Below are positions 6,552 through 62,104 of a DNA stretch of 64,000 nt, piece by piece. The stretch is from Candidatus Spyradenecus sp. GTDB taxonomy: Bacteria > Verrucomicrobiota > Verrucomicrobiia > Opitutales > UBA953. A program made the translations under genes and the position numbers. Within the stretch, counting starts at the first letter, position 1. The number at the start of each line of letters is the position of its first letter. The notes below the pieces were generated by a model. It was not told where the DNA came from, ran no database searches, and saw only the letters and a list, made by a program, of their open reading frames with translations. The DNA is taken from positions 1 through 64,000 of the forward strand of contig JAZSKX010000001.1 of the NCBI GenBank assembly GCA_045535075.1, read 5' to 3'.

Positions 6552-6577
6552 GTTCCCGTAGAATATTCTGCGGGAAC
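6552..6577 (+). terminator. Hairpin formed by an inverted pair of the CGGGAAC motif after mdh
   Basis: GTTCCCGTAGAAT-ATTCTGCGGGAAC. Confidence 0.65.
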
Positions 6578-6627
6578 GGATTGCTTTTACCGTAAACTCA
6601 ATTCTTAACACCAAAAATCATAAAATC

Positions 6628-8124
6628 ATGAAAAAAATTAATTATGTTTTGGCGATTTCCGCAGTCGCGATGCTTGCGTGGACCGGTTGTGCAAAAACCG
6701 GTTCCTGCCACGAAAGCACGCAGGTAAATCCGCAATTCCAAACGCAATGGACGCGCGGTTGCGACGGCATTATTCGTACGGCTGTTCCCGAACGTCCCGA
6801 AGGGCAGAAGCACGCTCTCGCGCTGAAAACCGAGCCGCTGAAAGTCGTCCGAGTCGCGTTTGTCGGCTTGGGTATGCGTGGTCCGGGAGCCGTGGATCGT
6901 TTCATGGCAATGAAAGATGTCGGACTGAACGTCCAGATTGTTGCTCTTTGCGACCACGAAAAAGTGCGTGCAGAAAGTCAGAACGATAAGCTGATCAAAA
7001 AGGGACTTCCCCCGGCGACGATCTACAGCGGACCGGACGGTTACAAAGAACTTTGCAAGCGCGACGACATTGATTTGGTTTACATTGCGACCGACTGGAA
7101 TCACCACGTTCCCGTCGCCCTCTACGCGATGGAAAACGGAAAGCACGCCGCTATCGAAGTCCCGTCTGCGATGAGCATGCAGGATTGCTGGGACTTGATT
7201 AACACTTCTGAACGCACCCGCAAACACTGCATCCAACTCGAAAACTGCTGCTATGACTTCTTCGAGTTGAATACGCTTAATATGGCGCAAAAAGGTCTCT
7301 TCGGTGAAGTTATCCGCGGCGAAGGCGCTTACATCCACGACCTTAGCGGTTTCTGGGATTATTACTGGAAAACCGGCAAAACCGACAAGCTCGGCTGGCG
7401 CTTGGAATACAACAAGCTTCACCGCGGTGACGTCTATGCAACTCACGGTATCGGGCCGGTTTGCCAAGCGATGAACATCCACCGCGGCGACCGCCTGACG
7501 ACGCTTGTCGCTATGGACACGAATTCCTTCGTCGGAAAAGCACTCGTCGAAAAGGCGACGGGCGAAGCCTGCACGGACTTCCAGAACGGCGACCACACGA
7601 CGACGCTTCTGCGTACGGCTAAGGGCAAAGTCATTGAAGTTCAGCACAATGTTATGACCCCCCAACCGTACAGCCGCAAGTACCAGCTCACGGGAACGCT
7701 CGGATTCGCCAACAAATACCCGACTCAAGGCTATGCGATTGAAGGCAAAAAGGTTAAGGTTGACGGTGTGCCGAATCACGAAAACCTGAATGCGCACGGC
7801 TTCCTTCCGCCGGCGGCGCACAATGCCCTGGTCAAGGAATATCAGCACCCGCTGATTACCGAAATCGGAGAAAAAGCTAAAAAGGTCGGCGGACACGGCG
7901 GCATGGACTTCATGATGGACTACCGCGTTGTTTACTGCTTGCAAAACGGCTTGCCGATGGACATGGACGTTTATGACATCGCCGAATGGTGCTGCCTTGC
8001 AGAACTCGGTGCGATTTCGATGATTAACGGTTCCGCTCCGGTCGAAGTTCCGGACTTCACGCGCGGCTACTGGAATCTTCTTAAGGGGTACAAAATGTAT
8101 AAGACCGAAAACACCTGGTACTAA
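6628..8124 (+). CDS. GH109 family NAD-dependent alpha-N-acetylgalactosaminidase-like lipoprotein (Gfo/Idh/MocA fold)
   Basis: Lipobox LAWTGC; VGLGMRG, AIEVP, LENCCY, YATHG, GGHGGMD, PDFTRG. Confidence 0.88.
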   Translation: MKKINYVLAISAVAMLAWTGCAKTGSCHESTQVNPQFQTQWTRGCDGIIRTAVPERPEGQKHALALKTEPLKVVRVAFVGLGMRGPGAVDRFMAMKDVGLNVQIVALCDHEKVRAESQNDKLIKKGLPPATIYSGPDGYKELCKRDDIDLVYIATDWNHHVPVALYAMENGKHAAIEVPSAMSMQDCWDLINTSERTRKHCIQLENCCYDFFELNTLNMAQKGLFGEVIRGEGAYIHDLSGFWDYYWKTGKTDKLGWRLEYNKLHRGDVYATHGIGPVCQAMNIHRGDRLTTLVAMDTNSFVGKALVEKATGEACTDFQNGDHTTTLLRTAKGKVIEVQHNVMTPQPYSRKYQLTGTLGFANKYPTQGYAIEGKKVKVDGVPNHENLNAHGFLPPAAHNALVKEYQHPLITEIGEKAKKVGGHGGMDFMMDYRVVYCLQNGLPMDMDVYDIAEWCCLAELGAISMINGSAPVEVPDFTRGYWNLLKGYKMYKTENTWY

Positions 8125-8139
8125 ACCGAGTTTTCATTC

Positions 8140-8175
8140 AAAAAAGGCAAAGGATTTTTCCTTTGCCTTTTTTTT
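8140..8175 (+). terminator. Rho-independent terminator
   Basis: AAAAAAGGCAAAGGA-TTTT-TCCTTTGCC followed by a T8 tail. Confidence 0.85.
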
Positions 8176-8273
8176 GTGCTAAAAAGAATTGCGGGAAACG
8201 GATTTTAACGGGAAAAACAAATTGCGTTCCCGCAGGGAATGGGAGATAATTCCAAGCTTATTTTATCTGTTTT

Positions 8274-59900: not shown

Positions 59901-60559
59901 GGAACGCGTTCGCCGCGCGACTCGAAGATTTCCTGCATCGCAAAAATGGCGGCTTTGACATTGAGCGCGTCCGTTGCCGTTTCATAAAGAAGAACATCCG
60001 CTCCGGCTTCAAGCACGGCGAGAATTTGCTCGTGGTATGCCGCGCGCATGGCTTCGAAGCTCACGGCGCGTGCCGCAGGATTGCTGATGTCCGGCGACAT
60101 TGAAAGCATTTTCCCCGTCGGGCCGATTGATGCTGCGACGAAGCAACGTTGCGCGCGTTCCGGGTGCTCGACTTCGAAAGCATCGCGTTCCCGAACGGCG
60201 ATTTCGGTTGCCGCGCGAGCCATTGCCGCGACGTGTTCCTCTAGGCCGTATTCGTGCTGGGAAATGCGCGTTGAATTAAACGTATTCGTGGAAATGATGT
60301 CCGCACCGGCATCCAAATACGCACGATGTATTTTGCCCAAAATATCCGGGCGGGTCAGCGAAAGCACATCGTTGTCGCCCTTTAGATCAATCGGATGATC
60401 GCGGAAAAGCTCGCCGCGAAAATCAGCTTCCGTGAGGTTTTCCCGCTGAAGCATCGTTCCCGTGGCGCCGTCCAAATAAACAATGCGGGAGCGCATCAGC
60501 TCAATTAAACTTTGTCCGCGGGAACTAATCGGAAGTGCATCAAAATTCATTCGTATCAT
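56948..60559 (-). CDS. metH: B12-dependent methionine synthase
   Basis: [57 protein letters not shown]. Confidence 0.97.
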
Positions 60560-60833
60560 TTAATAATGATTTTTTGATGTAGAAAATAAAAAATTACGGG
60601 GACGGAATTTCGAGGTTTGGTTTGGGGTTTGCCGGAAATTATACGAGAAAATTTTCGAGCTGATTTTAATTCGTATCTCAGAGAAGAAATGTGCCGGATT
60701 CTTGTAAAAATAGCTCGATTTTTGATTCTTTCTTGAAAACCGTTTTTTTTTTTGCATGATCGTACAATTTCAAAATTGGCGCGTTTTTGTCGCAAGGACG
60801 CGAAAGTTTTTTATTAACCTAATTCTGATAACA

Positions 60834-62039
60834 ATGAAAACGATTATGACTATTGCAACCGCATTGGTTGCGAATACAGCGTTTACTCTTGCCGCGGAAA
60901 CGCTTTGGTACGGTTCGTGGAATAGCACGGACTTCTATCTTTATAATTGCACGGCGACGACTCAAAGCGCGGATGGGCTTTGGCTTACGGTTGCCGGCGA
61001 TCATGTTATAGAGGACGGAGAAGAATTACTTTGGACCGGATCGTCTAATATCTTTCGCGTCGGTGTGCTTGAGGCTTCCTACAACAAAATTCAATTCAAA
61101 GATGAGGTACATCCCGAGTCTGCGGCGTTTGTCGATGCGTCGCTCCTTGTTCAAAAAGGGGGGATTCTTAAAGTCGGTAACGGCTTCCGTGTTGACGGGA
61201 ACGGATCTGTTACCGTCAAAGGCTCTGTCGAAGCCGGAATGAATTGTCCGAGTAACATTGCCGGACGCCAAATTAATGTTTATCAGGGAACACTTACTGT
61301 CGACGGAGGAACGTTTACGACTTATAACGGTTACGTCAATATCGGTTTGAATGCGGGTGGCGTCGGAAATTTAGTTGTAAAAAACGGAGGAAAATTTACA
61401 GATAAGGTAAAAGAAGGTTCTGACTCTATCGGCTGGTTTATTGTCGGTAGCGGCGGGAACGGGAATCTTACAATTGAGGAGGATTCGGTTGTTGATGTCG
61501 GCTCGTCGTATTTTTACGTCGGATACAATGGAGATGCCTCTGTTTCTGTTTCCGAATCCACACTTATTGCCGGCGGCATGGTCGTGTACGACGCGGGAAT
61601 TCTCGAAGTAAATAATGCGGGAGTATTAGAAGTGGATTCGTGGGCAGTTGTGGAATCCGGAGGCGATTTTTCCATGGATTCCGGAACAACGCTTCGTTTA
61701 CATGTTTCTGAATCAACCATCAATAGCGGGTATGTTGTTTTCGTCGCTGAGGGCGCTAATGTCTCCTTGGATAATGTAGCGGTAGAAATTATTCTTGAAG
61801 ACGGAGTTTCCATGGACTCGCTCCGGTCTGTTGAACTTATTTCCGGCTATGAGTCGCTTGAAGGGATTGCTTCGGCAACCCTTTATTCGGCTTCGAATCC
61901 AACCAGTATTCAACCCGTCAATCTTGCCGCCAGTAATGGCGGTATTGTCATCGCGATTCCGGAGCCTTCGATGTTTGGTTTGTTTGCGGCTCTGGGGGCT
62001 TTGGCGCTTGTCGGTGCGTGTCGCCGCAACCGCCGCTAA
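60834..62039 (+). CDS. PEP-CTERM surface protein with beta-helix/autotransporter-like repeats
   Basis: Signal MKTIMTIATALVANTAFTLAA; Gly/Val-rich GxLxV repeats; C-terminal IPEPSMFGLFAALGALALVGACRRNRR. Confidence 0.9.
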   Translation: MKTIMTIATALVANTAFTLAAETLWYGSWNSTDFYLYNCTATTQSADGLWLTVAGDHVIEDGEELLWTGSSNIFRVGVLEASYNKIQFKDEVHPESAAFVDASLLVQKGGILKVGNGFRVDGNGSVTVKGSVEAGMNCPSNIAGRQINVYQGTLTVDGGTFTTYNGYVNIGLNAGGVGNLVVKNGGKFTDKVKEGSDSIGWFIVGSGGNGNLTIEEDSVVDVGSSYFYVGYNGDASVSVSESTLIAGGMVVYDAGILEVNNAGVLEVDSWAVVESGGDFSMDSGTTLRLHVSESTINSGYVVFVAEGANVSLDNVAVEIILEDGVSMDSLRSVELISGYESLEGIASATLYSASNPTSIQPVNLAASNGGIVIAIPEPSMFGLFAALGALALVGACRRNRR

Positions 62040-62063
62040 TTTCAGTGAAGTTTAAGACTTCCC

Positions 62064-62104
62064 AAGAGCGTTCCCGCGATTTTTGACGCGGGAACGCTTT
62101 CTTT
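62064..62104. terminator. Inverted motif pair terminator between convergent genes
   Basis: AAGAGCGTTCCCGCG-ATTTTTGA-CGCGGGAACGCTTTCTTT. Confidence 0.8.

Follow-up and report, generated by a model that had tools for sequence, protein, structure and literature searches.

Inverted word pairs in the window

The stretch analysed here, referred to as the window, is a 64 kb segment of a Candidatus Spyradenecus sp. assembly (1.95 Mb in 18 contigs, 99.45% complete), in which the 7-nt word GTTCCCG occurs 234 times when both strands are counted, compared with 13.6 ± 4.0 times in dinucleotide shuffles. Closely spaced inverted pairs of this word stand behind a number of genes of the window, and the present analysis concerns the role of these pairs and the origin of the word from which they are built. 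Two orders are distinguished, GTTCCCG...CGGGAAC (FR) and CGGGAAC...GTTCCCG (RF); an FR pair remains FR when read on the opposite strand, so that the order is inherent in the structure of the pair and does not depend on the strand considered. The ten exact pairs listed in a first-pass annotation of the window are all present, nine of them in the FR order (starting at 6552, 11663, 16443, 28667, 43368, 44422, 54094, 55623 and 62070) and one, at 13181-13206, in the RF order, while the imperfect pairs that it placed near 11543, 24484 and 34783 were confirmed and fold at −22 to −28 kcal/mol. Four FR pairs with spacers of at most 30 nt (40940, 42017, 59484 and 59883) and one RF pair (54843) had been missed, all of them within open reading frames (ORFs). 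The pairs are listed below.

6552-6577, + strand: FR pair, spacer 12, 14 nt past the stop codon of a malate/lactate dehydrogenase gene (5539-6537); near-perfect 14 bp hairpin with a weak T tail (−24 kcal/mol, z −5.5)
11535-11566, + strand: imperfect pair GTTCCCG...CGGAAC, 39 nt past the SecDF stop codon; 13 pairs, T tail
11663-11688, + strand: FR pair, spacer 12, second hairpin after SecDF; A tract before and T tract after
13181-13206, + strand: RF pair, 34 nt past the stop codon of 11740-13146; T tail (−21 kcal/mol, z −4.1)
16443-16468, no strand assigned: FR pair in a convergent gap (15436-16419 on +, 16541-17257 on −); 12 bp stem, 4-nt loop
24483-24513 (approximate), + strand: imperfect RF-type pair CGGGAACGG...CCGTTTCCG, after the stop codon of an S9 peptidase gene (21814-24468) (−22.1 kcal/mol, z −3.9)
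28667-28682, + strand: FR pair, spacer 2, 32 nt past the stop codon of 26859-28634, within a 17 bp A/T-flanked palindrome (−22.3 kcal/mol, z −6.5)
34770-34830 (approximate), − strand: region of an imperfect pair between 35003-35953 (−) and 33804-34718 (−) (−27.7 kcal/mol, z −3.0)
43368-43390, no strand assigned: FR pair, spacer 9, in the convergent gap between a TetR-family gene (42592-43341, +) and a PEP-CTERM gene (43497-44303, −)
44422-44447, − strand: FR pair, spacer 12, 340 nt downstream of the feoB stop codon (44788) (−26 kcal/mol); its inner C..A is a U·G wobble on the minus-strand RNA
54094-54124, − strand: FR pair, spacer 17, 26 nt past the stop codon of 54151-55590 (−); minus-strand T tail (−21.9 kcal/mol, z −5.4)
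55623-55647, − strand: FR pair, spacer 11, 22 nt past the stop codon of 55670-56851 (−); minus-strand T8 tail (−21.3 kcal/mol)
62070-62095, no strand assigned: FR pair, spacer 12, in the convergent gap between 60756-62039 (+) and 62129-63394 (−)
42017-42049 and 59883-59905, no strand assigned: FR pairs in regions classed as coding by the gene calls
40940-40981 and 59484-59521, no strand assigned: FR pairs within listed ORFs
54843-54869, no strand assigned: RF pair inside an ORF

Eight of the ten exact pairs lie 14-34 nt from a stop codon, in agreement with the first-pass statement that most of them directly follow stop codons, which does not extend to those at 11663 (166 nt) and 44422 (340 nt). 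The A/T tails that it described are found at most sites, the T tail at 6552 being poor. Loops do vary from site to site as proposed, but the stem extensions, which had been said to differ everywhere as well, follow an extended form of the word, with GC outside and YGR/YCR inside. Eight folded examples gave −21 to −28 kcal/mol (z −3 to −6.5), and the top five sites of a terminator-like scan of positions 1-20000 all contain the word. The pairs in coding regions (42017, 59883, 40940, 59484 and the RF pair at 54843) are not terminators and occur at about the chance rate expected at this word density. Behind SecDF, two hairpins are arranged in tandem within 11496-11740, the imperfect pair at 11535-11566 being followed by the exact one at 11663-11688.

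Abundance and form of the word

Genome-wide, the 7-nt core is present in 6528 copies, or one per 300 bp, and the 9-mer CGTTCCCGC in 3244 copies, or about one per 600 bp of the 1.95 Mb, compared with a Markov expectation of 82 and with 34 copies of the reversed-word control. This 9-mer alone covers 1.5% of the genome, and a larger share in relatives. Word density averages 16.9 (s.d. 4.8) per 5 kb. A logo of 6527 copies reads g-C-GTTCCCG-C/t-G/a-r, with information ending beyond about 12 nt, and defines an asymmetric extended word, gCGTTCCCGCgr; the same logo is obtained from 5222 unpaired coding copies as from 520 unpaired intergenic copies. Among one-mismatch variants, TCCCG behaves as a hard core (0.2-2 times expectation) and the outer positions are softer (2.5-25 times). 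Both strands carry the core about equally (3359 versus 3169 copies) with a mild replication skew (1498:1573 and 1482:1232 by GC-skew sign), and a polar word of the Chi/KOPS type is ruled out by the corresponding splits of 49:51 and 55:45.

In a gene set obtained with our own codon-usage script (1513 genes, 89% coding), 5622 of the 6528 core copies (86%) are coding, with preferred frames GTT-CCC-G in the sense (1441) and xCG-GGA-ACx in the antisense direction (1751). A codon alignment of CysS from 21 species indicates how such copies arise: ten of the 12 word sites align without gaps to ordinary codons of word-free relatives, so that the word spreads through substitution and not insertion, in some cases at an amino-acid cost (for example His>Asn and Ile>Val), while the remaining two sites are inside a lineage-specific insertion. 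A 14-nt perfect palindrome, GTTCCCGCGGGAAC, which amounts to an FR pair with a spacer of 0, occurs in 21 copies, 14 of which are within genes (examples are at C16:51029 and C5:260651); in this palindrome each copy of the word provides the preferred 3′ flank of its partner.

Pairing and orientation

Dinucleotide shuffles destroy the density of the word and are therefore the wrong null model for pair counts, for which random placement at preserved density was used (2000 trials). In the window, this placement predicts 4.55 ± 2.13 FR pairs and 4.42 RF pairs at spacers of up to 20 nt, compared with 11 (P = 0.007) and two, respectively, that were counted. Across the genome, 213 FR pairs with spacers of 0-20 nt face approximately 50 RF pairs (50-51), while 500 orientation shuffles over the real positions yielded 104 ± 8.5 FR pairs, with a maximum of 136, and 103 RF pairs. 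The excess of FR pairs is restricted to spacers of 6-15 nt and to gene 3′ ends. At spacers of 9, 10, 11, 12 and 13 nt there are 15, 18, 20, 58 and 20 FR pairs and 3, 0, 2, 8 and 6 RF pairs, respectively, with about 3-4 same-strand pairs per spacer, and at spacers of 31-60 nt the two orders are equal (110 FR versus 115 RF). The sharp FR peak at a spacer of 12 nt, which accounts for 58 of the 213 pairs, is explained by two inner extensions of the word, each of 3 nt, and the loop of about 6 nt that they enclose.

The predominance of FR over RF, which amounts to 169 versus 6 pairs within predicted terminators, is real. A general polarity of terminators was rejected as the reason, since the 5′ arm of motif-free terminators is richer in C than in G as often as it is poorer (123 cases each). 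The reason published for known uptake sequences, an A-rich 5′ flank of the word that doubles as a terminator tail (PMC1852404), was likewise rejected, A reaching only 0.24-0.28 at positions −3 to −10 of the coding copies. T is scarce at positions +8 (0.07) and +9 (0.15) of the word, a shortage that would make a T tail immediately behind the word less favourable in RF pairs; this is put forward as a weak idea.

Terminator signatures

The FR pairs are concentrated where transcription would end. The 202 convergent gaps, 30 kb in total, contain 64 of them and the 923 co-directional gaps, 130 kb in total, contain 95, so that 159 of the 213 adjoin a gene 3′ end; the 191 divergent gaps (40 kb) contain only three, and 51 FR pairs are coding, as are 36 of the 50 RF pairs. 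The hairpins start at a median of 29 nt past the stop codon. Their flanks follow the direction of the preceding gene, as assessed by the test that Kingsford et al. applied to Neisseria (PMC1852404): for A ahead of the hairpin and T beyond it, counted per 10 nt, the values are 4.3 and 6.9 behind genes on the + strand, 6.95 and 4.6 behind genes on the − strand, and 6.5 and 6.8 in convergent gaps.

A second test, independent of the tails, made use of the six stem positions that flank the core. The ratio of G·U, in the sense of the upstream-gene RNA, to A·C is 52:14 behind + genes and 14:45 behind − genes (Fisher p = 5e-10). Since the wobble follows the direction of transcription, only a structure selected in RNA, and in that direction, explains the pattern.

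The contribution of the word to termination as a whole was estimated with a terminator finder that accepts RNAfold hairpins ending no more than 2 nt from a T-rich tail at gene ends. At ΔG ≤ −10 it predicts terminators at 531 gene ends, 169 of which contain an FR pair, six an RF pair, 72 a single exact copy and 284 none; both arms are therefore formed by the word in 175 and at least one copy is present in 247 of the 531, which gives the genome-wide share of terminators carrying the motif. With the stricter limit of ΔG ≤ −14, both arms are found in 173 of 410. The consensus of the pairs is AAAAAA-GC-GTTCCCG-YGR-(~6 nt loop)-YCR-CGGGAAC-GC-TTTTTT, with loops that vary between sites, and FR terminators are also present in the loci of relatives. 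Position, tails, wobble direction and share of the predicted terminators all support, at the level of the sequence, the reading of the pairs as terminators that was offered in the first-pass annotation, and the FR pairs very probably form the stems, 9-12 bp long, of Rho-independent terminators. Such terminators would be unidirectional behind single genes and bidirectional in convergent gaps.

At C1:128719-129300 and at C8:242525-243370, FR hairpins form a cluster, with three of them in 0.6-0.8 kb at each place. Several of the clustered hairpins share near-identical flanks and spacers (aaacctcggcgc...TGGAATGATTTG...gttttg), and no tRNA genes were found at either cluster; repeated small genes or a local duplication may account for them.

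Distribution among relatives and in foreign DNA

The 9-mer is found in all 18 other genomes of the genus, in 340-5581 copies, while 22 genomes that represent 20 further genera of this family and order contain 0-196 copies, near the reversed-word control. The assembly contains no 16S rRNA gene. The CysS loci of public metagenome-assembled genomes (MAGs), through which the genus, the only one to which the word is confined, was placed among gut Opitutales (Verrucomicrobiota), display the same split into word-bearing (L001-L015 and L017) and word-free (L016 and L018-L080) members; the word is present in loci with a GC content of 48-65%, and it is no longer seen where CysS identity falls under about 72%. 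No inflated word was found in 40-60 kb samples of five genomes of sister genera. Dialects of the word were considered for the low-copy species and rejected, G001 and G013 keeping GCGGGAACG(C) as their top 9/10-mer and G014 doing so only weakly. In a related Opitutales CysS locus with 72% identity (L018; a single 5.4 kb sample with 56% GC), CGCCGGCG occurs 18 times and TTGCCGGCG seven times, and the former may be a different, palindromic inflated word of a neighbouring lineage.

Within the genome, the poorest stretch is a Mu-like prophage at C16 185-219.5 kb, with 0.78 copies per kb compared with 3.35 for the genome (4.3 times scarcer) at a host-like GC content of 0.526; its genes encode Gam, transposition proteins A and B, a terminase, a portal protein, a head protease and a DNA methyltransferase. 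Other word-poor windows contain a Mu-like transposase, a gene for a 1609-amino-acid helicase, or genes with TIR and PD-(D/E)XK domains, the last of these being a possible defence island. Positions 1-3700 of the 64 kb window have a GC content of 0.45 and contain five copies of the word (1.35 per kb versus 3.8 in the rest of the window), and the ORFs 783-1544, 1522-2652 and 2838-3377 found there have no Pfam match. This segment, directly upstream of a ComEC gene, is probably acquired DNA.

Candidate DNA-uptake machinery

The ComEC gene near the start of the window is one of several candidate components of a transformation apparatus.

3775-5487, + strand: ComEC-like gene, 570 amino acids, matching Competence/ComEC N-terminal models only; nine copies of the word

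The encoded protein is short and lacks the metallo-β-lactamase domain; the open frames of the genus relatives span 562-758 amino acids. The genome also encodes two PilB-like ATPases, PilC, PilM, a secretin and DprA, as well as PilT, which scores 437 bits and is above the NCBIfam cut-off. Six prepilin-like proteins are present, and a cluster at C1 259-262.4 kb contains three proteins with a Pfam N_methyl match and one with only an NCBIfam prepilin-domain match. In the pilus secretin cluster (C12:8459-13608), the secretin matches the Amuc_1098 family and a neighbouring gene the Amuc_1100 family, both families being those of Akkermansia and both matches being below the curated cut-offs.

Interpretation and alternative explanations

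The first-pass annotation regarded the pairs as independent support for an uptake-sequence-type process. The parallel on which this view was based is well founded, uptake sequences of Neisseria and the Pasteurellaceae being reported to form terminator hairpins in which the +− order is preferred and which are enriched in tail-to-tail gaps (PMC1852404). The pairs are, however, incompletely independent as evidence, because any hyper-abundant GC-rich word and its complement are easy raw material for hairpins, an argument made in PMC1852404 itself. The known cases are defined by the same tests and by an orientation bias of this type (PMC1852404; preprint 10.1101/2025.10.24.684340), and their genomic hallmarks are all found here, namely abundance, presence on both strands, restriction to a clade, preferred frames, scarcity in a prophage and pairs in terminators, and through these parallels an uptake-sequence-type drive appears, with slightly better than even odds, to be the best explanation for the abundance of the word.

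According to the proposed mechanism, a genome-wide drive would keep adding copies of gCGTTCCCGCgr wherever they are tolerated, through biased uptake of own-species DNA by type IV pilus/ComEC transformation followed by recombination. A terminator stem would impose almost no sequence constraint and would accommodate one copy of the word on each strand, so that between genes it would be the least costly location for the word; new hairpins would in turn evolve easily where the word and its complement are so abundant. The head-to-head pair itself may be read by the uptake or the termination machinery. For this two-layer explanation as a whole, terminator stems supplied by an uptake-type drive, we estimate a probability of roughly 0.6.

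Other explanations of the pairs were weighed against the terminator stems. Chance neighbourhood of a very dense word would provide about 4.5 FR pairs per window at the preserved density, and the coding pairs fit this expectation, but the genome-wide counts, in which FR pairs are about twice and RF pairs about half as frequent as after orientation shuffling, and the confinement of the excess to spacers of 6-15 nt and to gene 3′ ends mean that it can practically be dismissed. It is highly unlikely that the FR pairs are sites of a dimeric DNA-binding protein, such as operators or nucleoid sites whose half-sites are a fixed distance apart, and not RNA hairpins: the sharp peak at a spacer of 12 nt would suit such a site, but this distance matches two inner extensions of 3 nt each and a loop of roughly 6 nt, the pairs are nearly absent from divergent promoter gaps (three in 40 kb), and tails and G·U wobble track the direction of transcription, which only RNA structure explains. 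Mobile REP/REPIN or MITE-like copies spread by a RAYT/IS200-type Y1 transposase are, in turn, extremely unlikely. The genome does contain two Y1_Tnp genes, and a few hairpins with near-identical flanks and spacers are clustered at C1:128.7-129.3 kb and C8:242.5-243.3 kb; however, the logo is empty outside about 12 nt, loops vary by site, 86% of the copies are intragenic and arise by substitution, both Y1_Tnp genes are flanked by other, motif-free palindromes, and Y1_Tnp was not found in seven of the 18 genus genomes searched, among them three of the richest in the motif, G003, G006 and G015, while it is present in motif-free genera. The view that the pairs are not copies of one REP element is thus upheld, shared sequence beyond the core and association with a RAYT having both been tested without bringing them into the REP family. 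The Y1 transposase genes (C10:1-1100 and C14:6000-7400) have their own 37-38-nt inverted repeats with CCGCAGGT/ACCTGCGG-type hairpins, and tandem repeats of about 110 nt are located upstream of the C10 copy; these flanking repeats are a separate family unrelated to the motif.

A further explanation accepts the pairs as terminators and attributes the abundance of the word to a non-uptake drive or selection of some unknown kind, for example a process linked to methylation or repair of the kind debated for HIP1, or a role of the word as a self mark throughout the genome or as a binding site, the terminator stems being merely where the word fits between genes. Hyper-abundant words with no known link to uptake do exist, HIP1 of cyanobacteria being an example, and a number of other observations similarly weigh against the uptake component or the two-layer explanation. 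The literature searches yielded no paper dealing with this word, or with competence or uptake sequences in this lineage. A search of the genome with Pfam HHH_3 and TIGR00426 revealed no convincing ComEA-type protein, the matches being below cut-off or falling in an 805-amino-acid ORF that may be Tex-like, and a ComF-like match is also below cut-off. Sister genera that lack the motif have these competence genes too, DprA and secretins among them, and copy number varies 16-fold in the genus with ComEC intact in 19 of 19 species, including those with 4-10 times fewer copies; a loss of ComEC in the low-copy species was thus looked for and not seen. Even the prophage exceeds the shuffle expectation by a factor of about 3.7, and the 5.4 kb locus of the sister lineage with its 18 copies of palindromic CGCCGGCG hints that word inflation may be common here. 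In addition, the published A-rich-flank explanation of the orientation bias fails, the gene calls and the terminator finder are simple scripts of our own, and a contig from an RNA library (5526 to 8108), a library that may contain DNA, spans the hairpin at 6552-6577, which has the poorest T tail. The RNA libraries containing the locus are represented by assembled contigs only, which lack 3′ ends and whose uncovered stretches are uninformative.

Against a non-uptake drive, in contrast, stand the asymmetry of the word, unlike palindromes of the HIP type; its C-to-T one-mismatch variants, which occur at 1.0-2.1 times expectation and would be depleted by Vsr-like repair; the scarcity of the word in a prophage of host-like GC content, which speaks against a plain mutation bias of the host; and the presence of every genomic hallmark by which known uptake sequences are defined. 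We consider such a drive to be a possible but rather unlikely origin of the word. The competence genes are not specific to the word-bearing genus, and the same is true of known systems, in which specificity comes from a minor pilin, reported to be ComP for the DNA uptake sequence (DUS) of Neisseria (PMC12616744); ComN/PpdA is a predicted receptor of this kind. Returning to the uptake-type drive, the chances are about even, judging by these analogies, that a gut Opitutales genus has independently evolved an uptake-sequence system, with a receptor that is not ComP-like, perhaps without ComEA, and with a pair-orientation rule that is not explained by flanks.

Significance and comparison with known systems

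If this interpretation is correct, the word would represent the first uptake-sequence system known beyond the Proteobacteria and would bring the number of lineages with such a system to three, with a signal that reaches about 5600 copies in a genome of less than 2 Mb and builds approximately one in three terminators. Uptake words, and their second role in terminators, would then have to be regarded as arising convergently from transformation and not as a peculiarity of the Proteobacteria, a new system for receptor finding would become available, and frequent within-genus recombination would be implied in a lineage that is common in the guts of livestock and humans. The word also separates native from foreign DNA in MAGs of this lineage, which aids the spotting of prophages and islands as well as binning checks, and its pairs are ready terminator annotations.

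HIP1 of cyanobacteria is a palindrome of similar density that occurs in coding and non-coding DNA and is lineage-specific, its function being unsettled. Unlike HIP1, the word described here is asymmetric and forms hairpins only as inverted pairs; should it not serve uptake, it would be a clean asymmetric counterpart of that unexplained phenomenon. With the REP/REPIN elements associated with RAYT it shares intergenic GC-rich hairpins behind genes in hundreds of copies, but it differs from them in the absence of whole-element homology and in being mostly intragenic, and the Y1 transposases of the genome have other palindromes and do not co-occur with the word.

In the literature consulted, the Neisseriaceae and the Pasteurellaceae are the only families for which sequence-specific DNA uptake is described, and their uptake sequences make up as much as about 2% of the chromosome (preprint 10.1101/2025.10.24.684340). 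Like the uptake signal sequences (USS) of the Pasteurellaceae (AAGTGCGGT type), the word is mostly intragenic with preferred frames, forms pairs that act as putative terminators and is graded, TCCCG being hard and the outer positions soft. It lacks the AT-rich downstream segments of the USS and is unrelated to it in lineage and sequence, and its orientation bias is stronger than that reported for the Pasteurellaceae in PMC1852404.

The Neisseria DUS (GCCGTCTGAA ... TTCAGACGGC) differs in sequence and belongs to another phylum than the Verrucomicrobiota, in which the word is found in the Opitutales. The word is the denser of the two (one core per 300 bp and one 9-mer per 600 bp) and 86% coding, it has no A-rich flank that could explain its orientation rule, and it is known from sequence alone, while ComP is reported as the receptor of the DUS. 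The two are alike in that each is an asymmetric, lineage-restricted word of some 10-12 nt that occurs thousands of times, with inverted pairs concentrated in tail-to-tail gaps, direction-dependent A/T tails and one strongly preferred configuration. They also share a large contribution to the terminators of their genomes, about 55% of Neisseria terminators being reported to contain the DUS (PMC1852404), compared with the 247 of 531 predicted terminators that contain the word here.

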